From Candidatus Saccharimonadota bacterium (GTDB lineage: Bacteria > Patescibacteriota > Saccharimonadia > Saccharimonadales > Saccharimonadaceae): a DNA stretch of 32,000 nt. Made by a program: the position numbers and the translations under genes. Of the stretch, positions 3,833 to 21,457 are shown in pieces. How positions within the stretch are numbered: position 1 is the first letter of the stretch; each line of letters begins with the position of its first letter. The notes beneath the pieces were generated by a model. It did not search any database. It was not told the DNA's origin and saw only the letters and a program-made list of their open reading frames with translations. The DNA is taken from assembly GCA_002421785.1 (NCBI GenBank), contig DIRZ01000003.1:218698-250697 (forward strand), in the 5' to 3' direction.

Positions 3833-4486
3833 TTATTCTGCGCGTTTACTGTTTTGTGCCCGCCAGGCGGCGATATCAGCGTGATGACCGCTGAGTAGTA
3901 CGGATGGCACCTTACGGCCATTCCAGTCCTCTGGACGTGTATATTGTGGGAATTCAAGCGTCTCTCCATCACTGAAGCTCTCAATGCTGGCGCTTTCCGC
4001 CCCACCCAGTACACCGGGGATTAGACGTACGATACTATCAATAATTGTCATCGCGGGCAATTCGCCGCCCGTCAGCACGTAATCACCGACGCTTAGCTCG
4101 GCATCGATCAGCTCCAGTATACGCTCGTCATAGCCCTCGTAACGCCCGCACACAAATATATAGCCCTGCTCTGCCTCGCTGTACTCCTGTGCCATTGACT
4201 GCTTCCAGCGCTGCCCCCGTGGAGTCATTAGCAATACCTTCGCTTGGGGATCATTCTGCTTTGCCGCTGTGATTGCGTTCCATAGTGGCTCCACCATCAG
4301 CAACATGCCGTCACCGCCACCATAGGGCGTATCGTCAACTTGTCGGCGCGGGCCCAGGCCGTATTCGCGTAAATCAACCGTCGACAGCTCCACAATACCG
4401 TCTTTTTGGGCCTTCCACATCATAGAATTGCCAAATACACCCTTAAACATGTCGGGAAATAAGGTGACTACTTGAAATTTTCTCAT
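3833..4486 (-). CDS. trmD: tRNA (guanine37-N1)-methyltransferase
   Basis: 217 aa. MRKFQVVTLFPDMF...DDTPYGGGDGMLL...VCGRYEGYDERI...LTGGELPA are classic TrmD blocks. Confidence 0.95.
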   Translation of the reverse strand: MRKFQVVTLFPDMFKGVFGNSMMWKAQKDGIVELSTVDLREYGLGPRRQVDDTPYGGGDGMLLMVEPLWNAITAAKQNDPQAKVLLMTPRGQRWKQSMAQEYSEAEQGYIFVCGRYEGYDERILELIDAELSVGDYVLTGGELPAMTIIDSIVRLIPGVLGGAESASIESFSDGETLEFPQYTRPEDWNGRKVPSVLLSGHHADIAAWRAQNSKRAE

Positions 4487-4506
4487 CTGTTATAGTATCG
4501 CATGTA

Positions 4507-4535
4507 TTGACTTTTTTGTCTATATATGCTAATAT
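4507..4535 (+). promoter_or_regulatory. near-consensus promoter of small cassette A
   Basis: TTGACT (4507-4512), 17-nt spacer ending in TGc, TAATAT (4530-4535). Confidence 0.6.
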
Positions 4536-4591
4536 GTCGTTAGCTTTCGACACATTCCAGTCGACTGCGTCCCTACGAACAAGGAGAAAAG

Positions 4592-4846
4592 ATGCTCAAT
4601 GCAGTCCTGGAGTACTGCTCACCAACGATGACCACACTCGCACTCCTGAGCAAGGAGCCCGACGAGAACGGGGTGATCGCACTCATCTTCAACTACATCC
4701 CGACGTGGAAGCGGCCCCTGCTCAGGCTCCAGATCAAGAGGAACTTCCTCGTCAAGACGAAGAAGAAGGTCGAGGTACACTTCGACCGACTGATCATGCC
4801 TGGCGAGCCCCTCGCAACAGGCATACGCCTTGTGCCGCGGGCCTAA
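4592..4846 (+). CDS. orphan 84-aa protein, compositional outlier (very high GC3)
   Basis: AAGGAG 5 nt before the ATG. By hand count about 70 of 84 codons end in G/C and all 7 Lys codons are AAG. No family recognised. Confidence 0.6.
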   Translation: MLNAVLEYCSPTMTTLALLSKEPDENGVIALIFNYIPTWKRPLLRLQIKRNFLVKTKKKVEVHFDRLIMPGEPLATGIRLVPRA

Positions 4847-4852
4847 GCCCTA

Positions 4853-4960
4853 AGCCCACCAAAAACTGCTTTGCCGAATTGGCTCGATCTGATTGAGAGA
4901 CCTCGTTTCTCTCGGGTCGCCACAAACCCAATTCAGACGAGCCAATCGGTGGGCTATTTT
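4853..4960 (+). other. ~103-nt long imperfect palindrome followed by ATTTT (terminator-like or MITE-like structured element)
   Basis: Pairings 4853-4860/4948-4955 (8 bp), 4876-4886/4938-4947 (10 bp, 1 bulge) and 4888-4895/4929-4937 (8 bp, bulge), plus apical mini-hairpins. Confidence 0.5.
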
Positions 4961-4990
4961 CGTGCCCGAAATATGGTATTATATAAGCAC

Positions 4991-5323
4991 ATGGGTGAGG
5001 ATTTTCAATCAACAACTACCAACGTAAGTGGGGTTACGGATGCGGAACGGCTTGAAGCTAGCACGCGACAAGTTTTCATTGCGCCCGTACATGATGACGT
5101 GGTCGCAGATGATTTGCCCGATGAGGTTATCGTCACCCGCCACCTCGTACAGCCACCAATCGGCAATATTCCTACCGACTCCGAATTAACCACTTCATCA
5201 TCCGCACAGCAACACATCGACCAAAAAAATCACCGTTTTGCCCTGACTGTTAGCTTAGTCACGGTAGCTATCGTCAGTGGCGTATCGCTCGTCGCCTACC
5301 TGACTGTCGCGCACCTTAGTTAA
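4991..5323 (+). CDS. hypothetical tail-anchored membrane protein
   Basis: Same frame as ORF-track 4871..5323. TGgTATTAT at 4974-4982 lies 8 nt before ATG 4991, so that start is preferred. C-terminal hydrophobic helix ALTVSLVTVAIVSGVSLVAYL. Confidence 0.5.
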   Translation: MGEDFQSTTTNVSGVTDAERLEASTRQVFIAPVHDDVVADDLPDEVIVTRHLVQPPIGNIPTDSELTTSSSAQQHIDQKNHRFALTVSLVTVAIVSGVSLVAYLTVAHLS

Positions 5324-5346: not shown

Positions 5347-5374
5347 AAACCCACTCTAATTTTGGAGTGGGTTT
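5347..5374. terminator. bidirectional intrinsic terminator between convergent genes
   Basis: AAACCCACTC / GAGTGGGTTT 10-bp stem, flanked by an A-run (5344-5349) and TTTC. Confidence 0.7.
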
Positions 5375-5453: not shown

Positions 5454-5876
5454 TTATATATCGAGGTCGTCTAGTTCCGCAAGCTCTTTGCGAGACTTTT
5501 TTGCGAAGTCCGATTCTTCAGGTTCGTCGTTATCCACACTTACAGCGGTTGAATTATCCACAACGTCTACTATTTCGCCATCTTCGGTCGCCGCGTCATC
5601 GCTTGAAATAACAGTTGATTCGTCAGGATTGTCGTTATTGACGATCTTTAAGTTGTACCTCGCAGCGTTTTTTGTCCCAAGCGCACGAAGCAACGTGCGC
5701 AAGCTTTGCGCCGTAACGCCACGCCGGCCAATCACTCGGCCAAGATCTTCTGGGTTTACGGTCAGTGTGAGTAGCACACCTTTTTCGTCAACAATGCGGT
5801 CAACGATAACGTCGTCCGGGTTGCCGACAAGTGATTTTACGATATATTCTACGAATTGCTGGTCAATAGTTGACAT
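5454..5876 (-). CDS. khpA: KH-domain RNA-binding protein (KhpA/YlqC-like) with long acidic C-terminal tail
   Basis: VEYIVKSLVGNPDDV...GRVIGRRGVTAQSLRTLL is a KH GXXG core. ATG 5876 lies 10 nt after AGGAG; GTG 5882 is the alternative start. Confidence 0.8.
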   Translation of the reverse strand: MSTIDQQFVEYIVKSLVGNPDDVIVDRIVDEKGVLLTLTVNPEDLGRVIGRRGVTAQSLRTLLRALGTKNAARYNLKIVNNDNPDESTVISSDDAATEDGEIVDVVDNSTAVSVDNDEPEESDFAKKSRKELAELDDLDI

Positions 5877-6014
5877 GCCCACTGGTCTCCTTTTCTGTCT
5901 CTCTGTTAGTATCGTACGCCTTTATTGTATCACGGTTTTACATTTCTCAGAATTGCGCGTTATATAGCTAAAACCCCCGGCATCGCCAGGGGTTAAAAAT
6001 ATACAGCGAATTGA

Positions 6015-6389
6015 TTATTCAGCCGCGACTTCTGCTAGCGCTTCGGCTGCAGGTGCTTCAACAACTTCTTCTTTCGGCTGGTTTTTGCGTAGCTTTTCAG
6101 CATTGCGAATAGGCTTCTGTTTGTCCTCAGATGCTTGTTTGACCCATTTTGGAAGCTTCACGCCTGCTGTCTTAAGGAGCTTAACGACACGTGGAGTTGG
6201 CTGTGCGCCGTTGTCAAGGAACTTCTGCGCTTCCTCAACCTGAACATTTGCTTCTTTTGTGTGTGGGTTGTAGCTACCAACATAGGCAACAACACGTCCA
6301 CTGCTAGGATGGCGCTGTGACTCTTGCACGGCGAGGCGATAAACTGGATATCCCTTGCGGCCAAGGCGTTGCAAACGAATTGCGAGCAT
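6015..6389 (-). CDS. rpsP: 30S ribosomal protein S16 (bS16) with Lys/Glu/Ala-rich C-terminal extension
   Basis: MLAIRLQRLGRKGYPVYRLAVQESQR is the canonical bS16 N-terminus. Confidence 0.95.
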   Translation of the reverse strand: MLAIRLQRLGRKGYPVYRLAVQESQRHPSSGRVVAYVGSYNPHTKEANVQVEEAQKFLDNGAQPTPRVVKLLKTAGVKLPKWVKQASEDKQKPIRNAEKLRKNQPKEEVVEAPAAEALAEVAAE

Positions 6390-6480: not shown

Positions 6481-7197
6481 TTATTTGCTTTGACGCTTTT
6501 CATACGTCTGCAGGGCGGCACGGGCGGCTTCTTGCTGCGCATTCTGCTTACTAGGCCCAACACCTTTGCCCATAAGCTGTCCATTGACATATGCTCCCAG
6601 TGTAAACACTTTGTCGTGATCCGGGCCAACCTCTTCGATAACTTTATATAGTGGTGTCGCACCATCAACTCGCTGGCTGACTTCCTGTAGGTGGCTCTTC
6701 GGGTCGCGCCACGTGCCTTCGTTCAGAATAACCTCAAGCTTACTGATGATGTGCGTGTGAATGAACACACTGGCGGCATCGTAGCCTTGGTCGAGATAGA
6801 TTGATCCGATGGTAGCCTCGAACGCGTTTGCCAGTATCTGTAGTCGAGCACGTGGAGTGCCGTTCTTTTCACCCCTACTCATACGGACAAGTGACTCGTA
6901 CCCTAGTTTGTCACCTGCTGCACCGATACTTTCCGTGCGCACCAAAGCAGCACGCCAACTGGTCAATATACCTTCTGGCTCGGTAAAGGTCCTGAACAAA
7001 TAGTCAGTTACAACCAGCTCGAGCACAGCGTCACCTAGGAATTCCAGTCGTTCATTGTGGTCGGTCACGCTTTTTTTGTGCTCATTCACATAGCTACGGT
7101 GCGTCAATGCCGTAATAAGTAGCTGAATATCCTTAAATTCAAACCCGAGCTTTTCGCGCGCAAAATCTTGGTAAGGGCCGATGGGCATCCCTGTCAT
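6481..7197 (-). CDS. rnc: ribonuclease III
   Basis: RNase III signature ERLEFLGDAVLE plus a C-terminal dsRBD (KSHLQE...GPDHDKVF...GPSKQNAQQEAA). Confidence 0.95.
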   Translation of the reverse strand: MTGMPIGPYQDFAREKLGFEFKDIQLLITALTHRSYVNEHKKSVTDHNERLEFLGDAVLELVVTDYLFRTFTEPEGILTSWRAALVRTESIGAAGDKLGYESLVRMSRGEKNGTPRARLQILANAFEATIGSIYLDQGYDAASVFIHTHIISKLEVILNEGTWRDPKSHLQEVSQRVDGATPLYKVIEEVGPDHDKVFTLGAYVNGQLMGKGVGPSKQNAQQEAARAALQTYEKRQSK

Positions 7198-7686
7198 TTA
7201 TAGTTTCTCCTGCCGAATCCGCTTCATAGCGAGCAGCATTAATTTACCAATGTCTTCATATTCAATCAGGTCGAGCGCCTCACTAAACGGAAACCACCTG
7301 ATTCCGTTCATCCATTCTTCTTTTTGGATTTCGTTACCATCAGAACGGACTCGTACCAAATAAATCTGGGTCGTCATGAGCACGAGCCGGTCGATACGGC
7401 GGTATCGAAAGTGGATCTTGCCCAACCATCCCAACATATCAAGCTGGTGCAAGCCGGTTTCTTCGCCAATTTCACGGCGGGCAGTGTCGACAGCCTTCTC
7501 GCCGTCTTCAATGTGCCCTTTAGGAATCGTCCAACGGTCCTTAGCGTCCTGAATCAACAGGATCTCGATGCCATCTTTCCCGTGGCGAAATACGATGCCA
7601 CCACTCGTGGGTTCGCGGACGATTTCCTGAATTGAAGCCTTTGGTTTAAAATATTTCTTGAATTTATCAAGCTTCGGCGCTGGCAT
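7198..7686 (-). CDS. Nudix hydrolase
   Basis: Nudix box [22 protein letters not shown]. Start chosen at ATG 7686 (GGAGGAG upstream) rather than track start 7737. Its stop abuts the rnc ATG (TAAATG). Confidence 0.8.
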
Positions 7687-8128
7687 TGTCTGGTTTCTCC
7701 TCCACAAGCGTCCTAAATGCAGTGCCGAGCACTCCATTTATAAACTTGCTTGAGTTATCAGAACCAAATGCTTTGGCGAGTTCAACAGCTTCGTTGATAG
7801 CGACCTTCGGCGGTACTTTATCACCACGGAAGAGTAGTTCATACAAGCCCAGCCGCAATACAGTACGATCAATACGAGAAATCTGCTCAATCGGCCATTC
7901 TGGCGCAATTGGTTGAATCTTTGCATCGAGACCCGGCTGCTCTTGCACAACGCCAGTCACTAAATCTTTCACGAAATCAGTGTCATCAATCGCCGTTTCG
8001 TATCGCTCTAGGTTACGAGTCAGTACTTCGTCGGCGTCCACAGAAGTATCGCCTGCCTGCAAGCGGAACTCATACTCATACAGAGTTTGAAGTGCGACGA
8101 TGCGTCCTAAGTGACGGTTACTTGCCAT
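7667..8128 (-). CDS. nusB: transcription antitermination factor NusB
   Basis: 153 aa. [13 protein letters not shown]...[12 protein letters not shown]...FINGVLG are typical NusB blocks. Confidence 0.9.
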
Positions 8129-8179
8129 TGTCTCTTGGTTCTTTCTTTGTTAATATCCACCCTAACAGAGGTAGACGTG

Positions 8180-8356
8180 CTACTTCTTGGTAACGGTTTC
8201 TTTTTTGACTGCTTTAAGCTTTTTGCCAGTTTCGTTCTTGGTTGTCTTAACCTTGACAGGTGATTTTGCGTTCACACGACGTGCGAGCTCAAGTACAAGG
8301 TGGCTGCGGCGTAGACCGGTTTTGCGCGGGCTCGACTGCTTCTTTGGCTGTGCCAT
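8180..8356 (-). CDS. rpmF: 50S ribosomal protein L32 (bL32)
   Basis: 58 aa, below the ORF-track cutoff. MAQPKKQSSPRKTGLRRSHLVL has the bL32 RRSH motif. AAGGAG SD upstream. Confidence 0.8.
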   Translation of the reverse strand: MAQPKKQSSPRKTGLRRSHLVLELARRVNAKSPVKVKTTKNETGKKLKAVKKETVTKK

Positions 8357-8462: not shown

Positions 8463-8491
8463 TTGACTTATAGTAATACTTATGCTATAAT
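8463..8491 (+). promoter_or_regulatory. consensus promoter of small cassette B
   Basis: TTGACT (8463-8468), 17-nt spacer ending in TGc, TATAAT (8486-8491). Confidence 0.65.
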
Positions 8492-8545
8492 GTTATTGTT
8501 AGGCACTTCGTCTAACCCTCGTACTTCCCCAATCCGAAGGAAAAC

Positions 8546-8851
8546 ATGTTCACGAACATCGTCATCACCCTGGCCTTCCTCGCCCTCGAGTTCGGCGTAC
8601 TGCACCTGTGCTACAGGTACAACACCCCTCTCGCGCGGCGACAGTACTCGGTCGCCGTCTTCGGAGCAATGGCGCTCCTCAGCCTCGGCAGCTACTGGTT
8701 GTCGCCCATCCGTGGCGCCGACTTCGTAGGTGATGTGCTGATGCCCAACCTGTGGCTCGGATGGATCAACATGATCCTCCTGGCCCTCTACATGATCGCC
8801 CTGGTCATCCGGGGCATCAAGAAGTACGGGCTCACCCCCGCCTCATTGTAG
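8546..8851 (+). CDS. orphan 101-aa membrane protein (about 3 TM), compositional outlier (very high GC3)
   Basis: GAAGGA SD. By hand count about 90 of 101 codons end in G/C. Hydrophobic segments IVITLAFLALEFGVL, VAVFGAMALLSLGSYWL and LWLGWINMILLALYMIALVI. Confidence 0.65.
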   Translation: MFTNIVITLAFLALEFGVLHLCYRYNTPLARRQYSVAVFGAMALLSLGSYWLSPIRGADFVGDVLMPNLWLGWINMILLALYMIALVIRGIKKYGLTPASL

Positions 8852-8870
8852 GCGGGGGTTTCCCCTTTTT
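8835..8870 (+). terminator. intrinsic terminator of cassette B
   Basis: CCCCCGCC / GGCGGGGG stem (8835-8842 / 8851-8858) followed by TTTCCCCTTTTT. The stop codon lies at the loop/stem junction. Confidence 0.8.
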
Positions 8871-8879
8871 GAGGCCAGG

Positions 8880-11315
8880 TTAGGCAACAATGCTGACGAG
8901 TTTGCCGGTAATGTAGATGACTTTCTTCGGTTCGCTAACAACAAATTTCTTTACATTTTCGTCCGCAAGGGCGAGCTTTTTAATTTCATCTTCGGCCGTA
9001 TCTTTTGCCACGTCCAGTTTCGCGCGCAACTTACCATTAACTTGCACGATGATTGTCATCGTATCACCGGTTAGATACTGCTTATCCCATTGTGGCCAGC
9101 TGTCCTTTTGGGCGCTGGTTTCGTGGCCAAGGTCATGCCACAGCTCATCGGCCATATGTGGGGCAAACGGCGCCACAAGCGCGACCAAACTGTCCAGCGC
9201 AAACTGCCAGCTATTGCCGCCAGCAAACCCCTTTGCCTTGAGAGCATACAAGCCGTTGGTGCATTCCATCATGGCGGCGATTGCCGTATTATACTTTTGG
9301 TCTTCTAGGTCGGCAGTTACTTTACGAATAGCCGGGTGGATCGTTCGCAGCACCTCAACGTTCTGTTCGTCATCGTGCCCAGCCTCTAGAAATTCCTGTA
9401 CCAAGTTCCATATGCGATTGAGGAAACGATAGGTTCCGGGCACTCCCTGTGGGTCCCAACGAGCCCAGACGTCGAGCGGTGCAGCGAACATCAGGTAGGT
9501 ACGAAGCGAATCGGCGCCATAGCCGCTGTTGATGATTTCGAGCGGATCAACACCATTACCCTTGCTCTTACTAAACATCGTTCCATCACTCGCAGTCACT
9601 TTACCGTTAAACAGGAACTTCTTGAACGGCTCCGGGTTTTCTACGAGACCCTGGTGCCAGAAGAACCTGGTCATAAAGCGCGCATACATCATGTGCGCAG
9701 TGGCGTGATCACCACCGTTATAGAAATCAATCGGCATCCACTTGTTTGCAATCGCACTATCAAAGATGCGAGATTCATTGGCGCCGTCCAGGTAGCGCAG
9801 GAAGTACCAGCTACTGCAGATGTACGTGTCGAGCGTATCAGTTTCGCGCGTTGCAGGGCCGCCACAGGTCGGACATGTCGTATTCATCCACTCTGTCGCT
9901 CGTGCGAGCGCACTTCGCCCGTCGCCACTCGGCGCAAAATCGTCAAGCAAAGGCAGCTCAACAGGTAGTTGCTCGTCAGGAACAAGCACGGTGCCGTCTT
10001 TTTCGCAGTGAATAATCGGAATTGGCGCACCCCAGTATCGCTGACGACTCACGCTCCAGTCGCGGACTTTATAGGTCGTTTTGGCTGCGCCCCGCTGTTC
10101 TTGCTCGAGCCATGCCACAATCTCTTCGCGGGCATCGCTGCTCGCCATGCCGTCATAGTGGCCACTATTCATTAGTGGTCCCTCGCCGTGATAACACTGC
10201 TCGGCTACATCATGCGGCTTAGTCACTACTTCGATAATCGGTAGGTTGAACTTCTCGGCAAATTCAAAGTCACGCTCGTCGTGCGCCGGCACTGCCATAA
10301 TTGCACCCGTGCCGTAACCGCTCAGCACATAGTCGGCCACCCATATAGGTACCTTCGCACCGGTCGCAGGATTAATCGCATACGAACCAGTTGCAATACC
10401 CGTCTTTTCTTTCGTTTCCTGGCGTTCTAGCTCACTCTTCTTCAAGCTATCTTTCACATACGCCATCACTGCGTCGCGGGTGCCGTCATTCACCAATTGC
10501 TCCACCAGTTCGTGCTCTGGGGCAATTACAAGGAACGTCGCACCAAACAACGTGTCGGGGCGAGTCGTAAACACCGTAACAGCGTCATCGCGACCATCGA
10601 GAGCGAATTCCACCTCTGCGCCAACGCTTTTACCAATCCAGTTCTTCTGTGCGGCCTTTACTACTTCACTCCAGTCAAGCGCATCTGTCGCCTCGAGCAT
10701 TTCATCGGCATACTCAGTAACCTTAAAGAACCACTGCTTCACTTCTTTTTTGGCGACTTCAGGGTCATCAACGCTATCATGCCGCCAGCATTTTCCATCA
10801 ATCACTTGCTCATTAGCAAGCACGGTTTGGCACTTTGTACACCACCACTGCATACGTGAATCCTGGTATGCCAGGCCCGCCCGATACATTTCACTAAATA
10901 TCCACTGCGTCCATTTGTAATAGACGGGCAAATGCGTACTGATTTCCTTGCTCCAGTCGTTACTCCAGCCCATCGCTTTGTACTGCGTATGATAGCTAGG
11001 AATAATCTTTGCCATACTTTCCTGGGGCGAAATACCGCTTTTAATGGCAAAGTTTTCGGCCGGTAGTCCAAATGCATCCCAGCCTACAGGGTGATAACTC
11101 TCGTATCCTTGCTGTCGCTTAAATCGTGCCATCACGTCACTAATGGTATAGTTCATCGCATGCCCAATGTGGATACCAGCCCCACTAGGGTAGTTAAACA
11201 TGCTCATGGCGATGTATTTTTGCTTATCGGACGATAGGTCCGCACGGTAAACCTGTTGTTCATCCCAGGCTTGCTGCCACTTTGGCTCAATTTCAGTTGG
11301 ATTATAGCGCTTCAT
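8880..11315 (-). CDS. leuS: leucyl-tRNA synthetase
   Basis: 811 aa. HIGH-type motif (GIHIGHAMNY), KMSKS-type motif (MFSKSKGN), editing-domain blocks. Confidence 0.97.
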   Translation of the reverse strand: MKRYNPTEIEPKWQQAWDEQQVYRADLSSDKQKYIAMSMFNYPSGAGIHIGHAMNYTISDVMARFKRQQGYESYHPVGWDAFGLPAENFAIKSGISPQESMAKIIPSYHTQYKAMGWSNDWSKEISTHLPVYYKWTQWIFSEMYRAGLAYQDSRMQWWCTKCQTVLANEQVIDGKCWRHDSVDDPEVAKKEVKQWFFKVTEYADEMLEATDALDWSEVVKAAQKNWIGKSVGAEVEFALDGRDDAVTVFTTRPDTLFGATFLVIAPEHELVEQLVNDGTRDAVMAYVKDSLKKSELERQETKEKTGIATGSYAINPATGAKVPIWVADYVLSGYGTGAIMAVPAHDERDFEFAEKFNLPIIEVVTKPHDVAEQCYHGEGPLMNSGHYDGMASSDAREEIVAWLEQEQRGAAKTTYKVRDWSVSRQRYWGAPIPIIHCEKDGTVLVPDEQLPVELPLLDDFAPSGDGRSALARATEWMNTTCPTCGGPATRETDTLDTYICSSWYFLRYLDGANESRIFDSAIANKWMPIDFYNGGDHATAHMMYARFMTRFFWHQGLVENPEPFKKFLFNGKVTASDGTMFSKSKGNGVDPLEIINSGYGADSLRTYLMFAAPLDVWARWDPQGVPGTYRFLNRIWNLVQEFLEAGHDDEQNVEVLRTIHPAIRKVTADLEDQKYNTAIAAMMECTNGLYALKAKGFAGGNSWQFALDSLVALVAPFAPHMADELWHDLGHETSAQKDSWPQWDKQYLTGDTMTIIVQVNGKLRAKLDVAKDTAEDEIKKLALADENVKKFVVSEPKKVIYITGKLVSIVA

Positions 11316-12680: not shown

Positions 12681-13319
12681 TCACAACTCGGAAGCCGCGG
12701 CACGCTTCTGCGCGATATCACTCACCACTTCTATGCAAAACGCTTCGATAAGCGCTTCGAGTTCAGCGTTAAGAGGGCAATCCGGCACGCGTTTTTTTGC
12801 CACCTGCAATACTGACGTATACCACCATAGCTGCTCAAGCGGCTGCAAGTTAAAATGTTGCCAGAATTCGCTTCCGTATCTTTGATGGTTCCGGATCATA
12901 TCTGTCAGGTTGCTAACTTTATCGGCCAGCGCGATTATCACCGAACCGTCACCGGCTTCAAATTCCAGACGGGTTAGGTAAGCGGTGTTTCGATCGTGCC
13001 AGTTCTCAATGTCATCGTTTTTTGAAACTCCCCAGACCAAAAAAGCAACGTTTGATCCGAACTCAGCTTCGAGCTCCTCGAACGTCACCGGAGTATCCTC
13101 AACGGTATCGTGTAAAACTGCTGCAATTTGCGTGTCCGGGTCGTCAGTAACGGCACGTACACGTTCCATCACGTCGAACGGATGCACAATGTACGGCTGC
13201 AGCTCTGCTTTTCGTAGTTGATTCTCATGTGCTTTGGCGGCGAAGTTCATCGCCACCCACAGGGGCTCCTCGTAGCGCTCAATAATTGGTAGTGTGTGGA
13301 GGTGGTCATGCTTGGGCAT
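12681..13319 (-). CDS. HD-domain (p)ppGpp hydrolase-like protein (SpoT/Mesh1-type small alarmone hydrolase)
   Basis: AAKAHENQLRK...PYIVHPFDV...AAVLHDTVEDT is the HD...HDxxED arrangement of the RelA/SpoT hydrolase domain. Confidence 0.7.
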   Translation of the reverse strand: MPKHDHLHTLPIIERYEEPLWVAMNFAAKAHENQLRKAELQPYIVHPFDVMERVRAVTDDPDTQIAAVLHDTVEDTPVTFEELEAEFGSNVAFLVWGVSKNDDIENWHDRNTAYLTRLEFEAGDGSVIIALADKVSNLTDMIRNHQRYGSEFWQHFNLQPLEQLWWYTSVLQVAKKRVPDCPLNAELEALIEAFCIEVVSDIAQKRAAASEL

Positions 13320-13546
13320 GTGCTTTTCCTTTCTTTTACCGCTGAGTTATAAAAAACGGCCAGCGAATTAATAGATAATTCGTAGCCGCAATGGTCGCTT
13401 ATTGTAAAGCCGCTGTCCTACATACTCAGTATGCGCCTGCGATGTCTGCAATGCAAGTGCACTTTTGCACGAAGTACCGGGCGACTGTAAACATTTTCAT
13501 AGTCAAACGGCTCATATGCGGTTATGATGAGGACAAAAGGAGTTAT

Positions 13547-13849
13547 ATGATAGCAAGTATTATTTATGCAATTGGTGGTTTTATAGAAGCACTTGTTGGT
13601 TTACGGTTCGTACTACGGCTCGTAGGGGCAAACCCTGACAATGCGCTTGTCAGCTGGATTTATGCATGGAGCACACCGTTCGTTGCGCCATTTTCGGGTA
13701 TTTTCGGCCAAGACGCCACTATTGTTAGTGGCGTAGGTGCCGTGACGACAAGCGTGTTCGATTGGACCGCCCTCGTCGCGCTGATCGTCATTGGTATCGT
13801 CGTGGGGATTATTGGCTCCTTGCTTGGCCGTCACTACGCAGTACGATAA
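13547..13849 (+). CDS. YggT-family small membrane protein
   Basis: AAAGGAG SD before ATG 13547 (in frame with track ORF 13391..13849). GLRFVLRLVGANPDNALVSWIY is YggT-like. Two TM segments. Confidence 0.65.
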   Translation: MIASIIYAIGGFIEALVGLRFVLRLVGANPDNALVSWIYAWSTPFVAPFSGIFGQDATIVSGVGAVTTSVFDWTALVALIVIGIVVGIIGSLLGRHYAVR

Positions 13850-13862
13850 TCCACGCTAACAC

Positions 13863-13891
13863 TTGAAATTCAGCACCAAATCCCGTATACT
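13863..13891 (+). promoter_or_regulatory. promoter driving the tRNA-Gly 5' fragment and spacer
   Basis: TTGAAA (13863-13868), 17 nt, TATACT (13886-13891). The fragment starts 11 nt downstream. Confidence 0.55.
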
Positions 13892-13902
13892 TTCTCATTG
13901 AC

Positions 13903-13926
13903 GCGGGTATAGCTCAGTTGTTAGAG
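13903..13926 (+). pseudogene. 24-nt 5' fragment of tRNA-Gly(GCC) (acceptor 5' strand plus D arm)
   Basis: Identical over 24/24 nt to 14080..14103. No matching 3' half follows it. Confidence 0.7.
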
Positions 13927-14079
13927 TGAGAACCTTCAGCGAAGGTTCGCAAGGCAACGTCACAAATGAACTCGTTCATTTGCCTGACTTGCGGGGTCGC
14001 GGAACGTGACCAAACTTGCCAGGCCAAGGATGCTTCTAACAAGTGCGGTATAATCGTGAAGTAAATTCATTTTACATAT

Positions 14080-21284: not shown

Positions 21285-21327
21285 CTGCTTCCTATCTATC
21301 TAAGAGTAGCGTAGTAGATAAAAATAC

Positions 21328-21365
21328 AAATAGAAATGAGCGGCACTAGCCGCTCATTTCTATTT
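21328..21365. terminator. bidirectional hairpin terminator inside the islet
   Basis: Perfect 17-bp stem AAATAGAAATGAGCGGC / GCCGCTCATTTCTATTT with loop ACTA. Confidence 0.75.
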
Positions 21366-21457
21366 AGTAGCCTTAGCCTCTAATTAAAGACACTAAACTC
21401 TTGCAGTCCGTCTCTTGTCATTTTTGAGTGGAATTAATTTGTGTTGACTTCCACCCA

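Follow-up and report, generated by a model that had tools for sequence, protein, structure and literature searches.

Cassette A, the element analyzed here, is a predicted transcription unit built around a single small open reading frame (ORF A) and occupies positions 4507 to 4960 of a 32,000-nucleotide (nt) stretch of contig DIRZ01000003.1, referred to throughout as the window, from a Saccharibacteria (TM7) genome of ∼49% GC. The minus strand carries a conserved string of genes, consisting of leuS, a gene for a basic protein of 58 amino acids (aa), nusB, a Nudix gene, rnc, rpsP, khpA, trmD, two small ORFs and ksgA, and between khpA and trmD two ORFs are found on the plus strand, ORF A (4592-4846) and C110 (4991-5323), the second of which was absent from the earlier reader's account. 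That account, made from the letters alone and called the original prediction below, described an orphan ORF running against the surrounding cluster behind a consensus promoter and ahead of a structured terminator. The opposed orientation is confirmed, with ORF A on the plus strand and both trmD and khpA on the minus strand. The components of the cassette and of its immediate border are as follows (GC3 is the G+C fraction at third codon positions, with GC1 and GC2 defined likewise, and pI the isoelectric point).

4507..4535, plus strand: predicted promoter of ORF A, with -35 element TTGACT (4507-4512), a 17-nt spacer, TG at 4527-4528 and -10 element TAATAT (4530-4535)
4536..4591, plus strand: 5' untranslated leader, with Shine-Dalgarno sequence AAGGAG at 4581-4586, 5 nt before the ATG
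4592..4846, plus strand: ORF A, 84 aa, basic (pI 9.9), predicted beta-alpha-beta-alpha-beta-beta, GC3 0.83
4853..4960, plus strand: predicted terminator T1, in which a basal stem GCCCACC (4853-4860) pairs with GGTGGGC (4946-4953) around a long inner hairpin, with tail CUAUUUUC
4487..4506, minus strand: putative core promoter of a leaderless trmD, with -10 element GATACT (4499-4494), TG-extended by scan, 7 nt before the trmD ATG at 4486

The elements TTGACT-17-TGcTAATAT, the 56 nt between the end of the -10 and the ATG at 4592, and the AAGGAG all lie where they had been placed originally. The designation as a consensus promoter can be retained only in part, since the extended -10 is present but just 9 of the 12 consensus positions are matched, which makes for a good promoter and not a consensus one; the promoter of cassette B, a second small unit in the window that is described below, matches 11 of 12. 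A hairpin in the leader of ORF A proved not to be significant relative to shuffled sequences (z = -1.2). On the minus strand a promoter scan identifies TAGACA-17-GATACT with TG at 4522..4494, and we consider the segment 4487-4506, which reads CTGTTATAGTATCGCATGTA on the plus strand and holds GTTATAG, to be a probable promoter for a leaderless trmD mRNA. The -35 elements of ORF A and trmD (TAGACA, 4522-4517) together make up a near-palindrome, TTGACTTTTTTGTCTA.

The trmD region was gathered from 80 species-level relatives (cited by L numbers where they must be told apart) and the sequence upstream of trmD was read in all of them. In roughly 30 of these ∼80 genomes, including Nanosynbacter, the sequence CAT-ctgttayagtgtagcaagt-ATTGACTTTTTTGTCTA...TGnTATAAT recurs, corresponding to TAGACA-17-TACACT/GATACT-7-ATG when read on the trmD strand. 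Because the promoter of ORF A is conserved next to trmD in so many relatives, whichever ORF comes after it, we regard it as resident at the site, and in one relative (L034) the -35 and spacer are retained (95% identity over 41 nt) with no ORF behind them. The proposal of a promoter-bearing insertion cassette is therefore not supported, while that of a native-style promoter survives in so far as the promoter is of native type and resident. The stretch GTTATAG..CGC..ATGTA that had been thought common to cassettes A and B falls, at A, within 20 conserved nt that separate the start codon of trmD from the -35 of ORF A and bear the -10 and discriminator of the putative trmD promoter; at B the heptamer is not conserved (GTTATGG in L087 and L093), and taken alone GTTATAG is no commoner than expected by chance. 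Similarly TTGACTT...TATGCTAWAWTG, put forward as a special module of the two cassettes, is the ordinary local form of a strong promoter, those of tRNA-Gln and rpsP being of the same kind. A and B do belong to the same wider gene class.

The gene order from leuS to khpA and trmD is kept in 80 relatives, none of the 80 species-level relatives encodes ORF A or ORF B, and the synteny check called for in the original prediction thus establishes that ORF A is lineage-variable, being absent also from L088 and L090. In these two close relatives, with TrmD 92% identical, the start codons of trmD and C110 are separated by 61 nt and there is no ORF A; in such empty sites (L088, 5327-5388) the predicted divergent promoters of trmD and C110 fit within the one 61-nt spacer. 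Among 67 relatives the khpA-trmD gap is at most 250 nt, without insert, in 15 and ranges from 270 to 4300 nt in the rest, and the ORFs that follow the conserved promoter are unrelated to one another, 43-157 aa in length and mostly of raised GC3. Even in a set of sister species (L036, L038, L039, L041, L042; gaps of 594-952 nt) that have promoter and leader in common the ORF starts differ, although similar ends suggest a possible relationship between the slot ORFs of L038 and L039. When the window is compared with L088, synonymous divergence (dS) stays under 0.05 across 6481-8356 (rnc, the Nudix gene, nusB and the 58-aa gene), is ∼0.5 for leuS, rpsP and khpA and reaches ∼2 for trmD, a mosaic that points to recent recombination between lineages. 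From these sequence patterns it would appear that the content of the slot is gained, lost and replaced, likely by homologous recombination on the conserved flanks. We note separately a structured 5' leader in front of differing slot ORFs (L008-L014, ∼9900-9930; L053, 9909-9923; L094, 1545-1559), including the ORF A homologue of L094, with an outer helix cttttgctcaa...ttgagca around GGGCGAAAGTCGCCC; it matches nothing in Rfam and is possibly a regulatory RNA.

A word-indexed search with the ORF A protein returned one relative alone, of 62% identity and the same synteny (L006). From these two sequences a profile was built for a full HMMER scan followed by a profile search, covering collections of 5.8 billion and 1.84 billion proteins, and the family now consists of 13 small proteins (76-103 aa) with pI values of 9-11 throughout and 13 invariant residues in their alignment, so that ORF A is not an orphan. 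Two long tandem-repeat proteins that matched the profile (P0014, P0018) were discarded as low-complexity repeats. Family members occur at no fewer than three sites: in the trmD slot (window, L006, L094), beside a HIT gene (L096-99) and after ThrE (L100-104). T1 accompanies the ThrE-linked copies, and those at the HIT site have a related but different terminator. Decay of the frame in relatives, raised in the original prediction as a possible outcome, is not what is found, as the frame is intact in the L006 orthologue at 62% aa identity with a ratio of nonsynonymous to synonymous divergence (dN/dS) of 0.48. The strong three-base periodicity (GC1/GC2/GC3 of 0.56, 0.37, 0.83) and the Lys-rich product complete the picture of what is, as far as can be judged from its sequence, a real and separately transcribed small protein gene.

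AlphaFold, supplied with the family alignment, predicts the order beta-alpha-beta-alpha-beta-beta with a mean predicted local distance difference test score (pLDDT) of 90.3, and the best Foldseek matches of the model are SpoVS (E 1e-3 to 3e-2, template modeling (TM) score 0.5-0.56) and Alba proteins, the top match in BFVD being a phage SpoVS. We read ORF A as a small protein that evolves fairly fast, and suggest with low confidence that it may bind nucleic acids. No matches were obtained in Pfam for any of the 13 family members at E values up to 10, nothing for A, B or C110 in Pfam, NCBIfam, PHROGs, PADLOC or a PDB profile search (and in the last nothing relevant for ORF A), no relatives of ORF A in a protein-pattern scan of JGI metagenomes and none in 2.9 million viral contigs.

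The structured terminator of the original prediction is well founded, with the hairpin at -47.9 kcal/mol (z = -4.6) and none of 200 shuffled sequences folding as well. T1 in the window runs from GCCCACC through an A-rich run and the long inner hairpin to GGTGGGC and then TATTTTC, and with its G+C-rich stem directly before a U-tract at the end of a gene it has the features expected of a rho-independent terminator. The same design is seen elsewhere with near-identical ends and a variable center of 30-90 nt, the basal stem showing compensatory A-U to G-C changes (GCCCRCC/GGYGGGC ends). It closes the trmD slots of L006, L094, Nanosynbacter, L017 and L036-42, a second slot in L010, L011 and L013, and the ThrE-linked copies of the ORF A family. 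A two-armed pattern, in the long form, finds at least 120 matching metagenome stretches where ∼4 would be expected by a rough estimate of collection size. Among the matches listed, at least 75 distinct small ORFs lie upstream of T1 (median 74 aa, median GC3 0.73), in at least 30 families without detectable mutual similarity, and a membrane-like segment is present in 64 of the 75. Close orthologues of window genes are present at 21 of the 120 listed loci, which marks these at the least as Saccharibacteria. The density of T1 is ∼1 per 10-30 kb. In 2.9 million viral contigs the two-armed pattern is not found with either spacing; 62 matches there to a T1 16-mer were put down to chance, the contigs being of ∼60% GC and lacking a convincing paired arm. 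Searches of the cassette and related loci against Rfam, at gathering thresholds and with permissive E-values, gave tRNAs and chance matches alone.

Two further notions concerning T1 were considered. A pseudoknot between the U-tail and the A-rich run was dropped because the run mostly pairs with an internal UUUUC in the nested long hairpin; the short-form copies of T1 do keep the complementarity between tail and run, which leaves the idea a slight possibility. A plausible case for termination in both directions can be made for L006 and L094; it is weak for the window, where action on the opposite strand is doubtful since the U-run lies inside a loop. A second type of terminator, CCCCCT-AAAGAAAGC(C/T)...GCTGTTGAG...CTTCAGGGGG-CTTTCTT, was observed behind unrelated slot ORFs in L029, L053, L019, L096 and L017, and has a core, AGCTCGCC, in common with T1.

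G or C ends 70 of the 84 codons of ORF A (third positions: 37 C, 33 G, 11 A, 3 T) and Lys is encoded by AAG in all 7 cases, exactly as first described. Recoding of the protein with native usage gives 43.8 ± 4.4 such codons, with a maximum of 59 in 5000 draws, placing the observed number at z = 5.9; for ORF B the same test gives z = 7.4. The neighboring genes were correctly said to have balanced third positions, the long ORFs of the window averaging a GC3 of 0.51 (standard deviation 0.04) and the other window ORFs of at least 80 aa covering 0.32-0.67. ORF A thus lies +0.31 above the long-ORF mean, and ORF B +0.37 above the window median, the excess of its L088 orthologue being +0.42; for comparison, 1338 ORFs from relatives, each 100 aa or longer, have the 99th percentile of their GC3 excess at +0.21. 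The codon shares that distinguish the T1-linked ORFs, given as the fraction within each amino acid, are the following.

CTC (Leu): native 0.14, T1-linked ORFs 0.39
CCC (Pro): native 0.12, T1-linked ORFs 0.44
TCC (Ser): native 0.08, T1-linked ORFs 0.34
AAG (Lys): native 0.41, T1-linked ORFs 0.85
GCG (Ala): native 0.30, T1-linked ORFs 0.22
CCG (Pro): native 0.45, T1-linked ORFs 0.30
CGC (Arg): native 0.47, T1-linked ORFs 0.25
AGA + AGG (Arg): native 0.09, T1-linked ORFs 0.37

C-ending codons are raised in both the pyrimidine-ending pairs and the four-fold boxes, as are AAG, GAG and CAG, while the G-ending codons of four-fold boxes stay level or drop, Arg moves from CGN to AGR, and the CpG-containing codons (NCG, CGN) are not enriched but depleted. 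A log-odds codon score trained solely on the metagenome T1-linked ORFs yields +0.49 for A and +0.47 for B, against -0.18 to -0.38 for all 24 native genes of the window. The scores point to a discrete class, distinct from the ordinary optimization of highly expressed genes, and translational optimization was rejected as the source of the style because rpsP is among the lowest scoring genes and the bL32-like orf58, the 58-aa gene, is negative as well. Uniform GC pressure, by mutation bias or biased gene conversion, was similarly set aside as a sole cause since four-fold G-ending codons and CGC fall and AGR rises; it could be a contributor. Across the ORF A family GC3 stays at 0.70-0.83 in all three contexts, at 31-62% identity, and the orthologues of B reach 0.95. 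Moreover, of the 19 synonymous differences that separate A from its orthologue, 6 are third-position C/G swaps, indicating that sites have turned over while staying G or C. In the explanation favored below, the codon style is probably a stable hallmark of the whole class of small accessory genes, one that is maintained and is not the fading trace of a donor. Two large ORFs in L061 (3934-5994, 686 aa, and 13120-14001, 293 aa) have a GC3 of 0.82-0.88 with ordinary GC1 and GC2, from which it is seen that the G/C-ending style is not strictly confined to small genes.

Cassette B, the second unit of this kind in the window, lies between leuS and the 58-aa gene.

8463..8870, plus strand: cassette B, with TTGACT-17-TGcTATAAT (8463-8491), a leader, ORF B (8546-8851), and a hairpin (8835-8858) with T-tract

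ORF B encodes 101 aa with ∼3 membrane helices at a GC3 of 0.89. Between the window and L088-L091 the 145-nt promoter-leader is 100% identical and the 60-nt terminator region 98% identical, and the intervening ORF shows a difference of 12%, distributed in mosaic blocks, with dN/dS of 0.4-1.0. In the distant relatives L007, L025 and L069 the B slot has the promoter and leader in common, and the ORFs, small multi-helix membrane proteins, show no similarity by BLASTP.

What, then, is ORF A? The original prediction took it to have been acquired recently from a high-GC donor, for example an actinobacterial host, behind or together with a strong promoter, and not yet to have ameliorated. A GC3 of 0.83 relative to 0.51 for native genes, the absence of ORF A from the close relatives L088 and L090, a dinucleotide signature unlike that of native genes, and C-ending Leu, Val, Ala and Ile codons that together with AAG and GAG resemble high-GC usage can all be cited in its support. 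However, no homologues in a donor are found, the relatives recovered from the 5.8 billion and 1.84 billion proteins being located solely on mid-GC (0.45-0.52) metagenome contigs, some with Saccharibacteria synteny and the rest with the same style of promoter and terminator. Third positions are the first to ameliorate, so that a high GC3 combined with native-like GC1 (0.56) and GC2 (0.37), in a gene for a Lys-rich protein, argues against a GC-rich source, as does the persistence of the bias in orthologues and paralogous contexts at 31-62% identity and at 0.95 in orthologues of B. NCG and CGN codons are depleted and AGR accounts for 37% of Arg codons; such avoidance of CpG codons and the use of AGR for Arg are unlike actinobacterial usage. 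The promoter, in addition, is native and ancient. For TM7x, no strong sign of Actinomyces-derived genes has been reported (PMC7427843). We consider recent acquisition of this sort very unlikely. That ORF A could instead be a chance frame in a structured non-coding RNA or a GC-rich spacer is suggested by its shortness, the absence of Pfam and NCBIfam matches and the strongly structured 3' region that follows directly, but the three-base periodicity (0.56, 0.37, 0.83), a 13-protein family with invariant residues, a pLDDT of 90, a frame kept at 62% aa identity and the lack of an Rfam match leave this with next to no probability.

An unlikely alternative is a self-mobile cassette, integron-like or similar to a miniature inverted-repeat transposable element, in which ORF and T1 move as one and T1 is a recombination site or uptake signal besides a terminator. 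It would account for members of the ORF A family being accompanied by T1 both in the trmD slot and after ThrE, two sites that are unrelated. That T1 keeps its sequence behind ORFs of at least 30 unrelated families is unusual for a plain terminator; its ends, conserved around a variable center, recall attC sites, and a fixed promoter followed by a variable ORF recalls the Pc/attI of integrons. Against this, Pfam scans of ORFs across the 32-kb window reveal no integrase or transposase, cassette arrays, target-site duplications and terminal inverted repeats are all missing, the GCCCRCC/GGYGGGC ends of T1 do not resemble attC core sites, one T1 per ∼10-30 kb is far below the density of known uptake sequences, and the P0017 copies bear a different, related terminator. 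A phage moron or prophage remnant, that is, a phage-borne independent transcription unit left behind in the chromosome, would likewise come with the predicted promoter and terminator of its own, deviant composition and absence from related genomes seen here (as described in PMC3594210), and the top BFVD fold match is to a phage SpoVS-like protein. Yet no phage genes are nearby, the neighbors being housekeeping genes, neither a relative of ORF A nor T1 in either spacing occurs in the 2.9 million viral contigs, and there is no PHROG match, so that this origin strikes us as most improbable.

The explanation that we favor, and judge more likely than not, is that ORF A is a small accessory gene in a changeable slot of a conserved operon, with a codon style of its own and a common terminator, and not a recent high-GC acquisition. 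A resident sigma-70-type promoter would fire away from trmD, its -35 overlapping back-to-back with that of the promoter for leaderless trmD, to give a transcript with a leader of ∼50 nt and a strong ribosome-binding site that would end at the long-stem intrinsic terminator T1. The product would be basic, 84 aa long and of an alpha/beta fold that loosely recalls SpoVS and Alba, our best guess being a small nucleic-acid-binding protein. The constants of the slot would be the promoter and, in many lineages, the terminator, with the intervening ORF varying by lineage as ORFs are gained, lost and swapped through homologous recombination on the conserved flanks. Saccharibacteria are naturally transformable.

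Several observations weigh against this explanation or parts of it. The fold match is weak, with a TM score of ∼0.5, and no sequence profile ties ORF A to SpoVS or Alba. Dinucleotides of the cassette ORFs differ from those of native genes (CpG 0.97 vs 1.26, GpC 1.06 vs 1.41), a signature that a foreign gene pool would also give; the protein and viral contig searches found no reservoir for such a separate pool. The dS of A, 0.63, is near saturation (the proportion of synonymous differences being 0.43 with third positions limited to G and C) and is unreadable as slow synonymous change, for which reason synonymous constraint was rejected as its interpretation. The contigs with HIT-linked and ThrE-linked copies of ORF A carry no taxon assignment. 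Replacement by recombination is a reading of the sequence patterns, and very fast divergence of orthologues could mimic it for some slot ORFs, the B slot possibly among them. Finally, the promoter, the leaderless start of trmD and the terminator are sequence-level assignments, and promoter-like sites in the window as a whole are no more numerous than in shuffled sequences.

Literature searches have turned up no description of this class of small genes, and the locus looks like one example of an apparently undescribed Saccharibacteria class, in which a second codon dialect goes together with fixed expression slots and a conserved terminator. A bolder version, possible but doubtful, is that of a phylum-wide pool of exchangeable small genes written in the second dialect and moving between fixed promoter-leader/T1 slots, with T1 as a handle for recombination or uptake. 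Were it correct, an epibiont with a tiny and otherwise rigidly syntenic genome would draw on this pool, which encodes mostly membrane proteins together with small basic ones like A, for fast-changing functions at the surface, in host interaction or in phage exclusion; published comparisons find gene order in Saccharibacteria to be strikingly conserved (PMC7427843). The locus suggests where adaptive variability might lie, namely in single-gene slots within housekeeping operons that hold diverse, fast-evolving small proteins. T1 and the codon score would then provide a handle for listing candidate host-interaction and defense genes in uncultured bacteria of the candidate phyla radiation, compositional detectors of alien genes would mislabel the class as recent transfers from high-GC hosts, and one would have to ask why two codon dialects coexist in a genome of ∼0.8 Mb.

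The remaining features of the region are listed here.

3833-4486, minus strand: trmD
4974..5323, plus strand: C110, with extended -10 TGgTATTAT at 4974-4982, ATG at 4991, 110 aa and a C-terminal membrane anchor
5347..5372, strand unassigned: hairpin with flanking A-tract and T-tract, between the convergent C110 and khpA
5454-5882, minus strand: khpA
6015-6389, minus strand: rpsP
8180-8356, minus strand: gene for the 58-aa basic protein (orf58)
8880-11315, minus strand: leuS

C110 is of native codon usage and adjoins trmD directly in L088, L090 and L022-type relatives. Its mRNA and that of trmD both appear to be leaderless or nearly so, with extended -10 promoters and 7-9 nt from the -10 to the ATG. 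The hairpin at 5347-5372 has the look of a two-way terminator that would end the rpsP-khpA transcript before the slot. The 58-aa protein is highly conserved and basic, starts MAQPKKQSSPRKTGLRRSH... and is encoded with native codons (GC3 0.53); it has no match in Pfam or NCBIfam, and its N-terminus we take to resemble that of ribosomal protein bL32. A perfect 18-bp hairpin with T-tract on the minus strand at 21327-21366 is the strongest terminator-like site of the window. A further variable site follows an HD-domain gene (13391-13849 in the window, 5281-5718 in L087), occupied in the window by a YGGT-like ORF of native codon usage and in both L087 and L093 by a putative lipoprotein of GC3 0.79 and then two more small ORFs.

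The nearest functional picture for cassette A is provided by phage morons such as HK97 gene 15, which carry a promoter and a terminator of their own, are of odd composition and are present or absent between relatives (PMC3594210). In both cases one small gene with a sigma-70 promoter and an intrinsic terminator, here as predicted from sequence, is inserted between conserved operon genes, with composition unlike that of its neighbors and a patchy presence among relatives, and many members of the wider class of cassette A are small membrane proteins. Cassette A differs in residing in a bacterial housekeeping operon, in having no counterpart of ORF A or T1 in viral contigs, in a promoter that belongs to the site and not to the insert, and in an odd composition that is maintained over long divergence. 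The protein itself may be likened to SpoVS and Alba, with ∼85 basic residues, the predicted beta-alpha-beta-alpha-beta-beta order and the best Foldseek matches in common, but ORF A has no sequence-profile similarity to either, the TM score is ∼0.5 and nucleic-acid binding is putative.

With integron gene cassettes the slot shares a resident promoter, a variable ORF and, behind it, an imperfect palindrome whose ends are conserved and whose center varies; it is distinguished from them by the lack of a recombinase in Pfam scans of the ORFs of the whole window and of attI, by one unit per slot without arrays or attC core motifs, and by the U-tract that makes T1 terminator-like. Uptake sequences offer another parallel, as pairs of the Neisseria DNA uptake sequence (DUS) or the Haemophilus uptake signal sequence (USS) double as terminators, and here too many unrelated genes of a naturally transformable bacterium are followed by a recurring, conserved inverted repeat that would serve as their terminator. 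T1 is, however, much rarer (∼1 per 10-30 kb), long, and tied to one class of small genes. The nearest evolutionary picture for the trmD slot is that of the minimal mobile elements of Neisseria, variable genes between conserved flanks that are exchanged by transformation and homologous recombination. Both have a fixed site between conserved genes, content that is unrelated from lineage to lineage and no mobility genes or repeats, both are found in naturally competent organisms, and a mosaic signal of recombination is present in the neighboring genes; it is the mosaic dS values, along with the mosaic alleles of B between identical flanks, that indirectly suggest a similar exchange, by transformation and homologous recombination, at the trmD slot. 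What sets the trmD slot apart is that it supplies a conserved promoter and often a conserved terminator, and that its inserts consist of one small ORF each, of special codon style.

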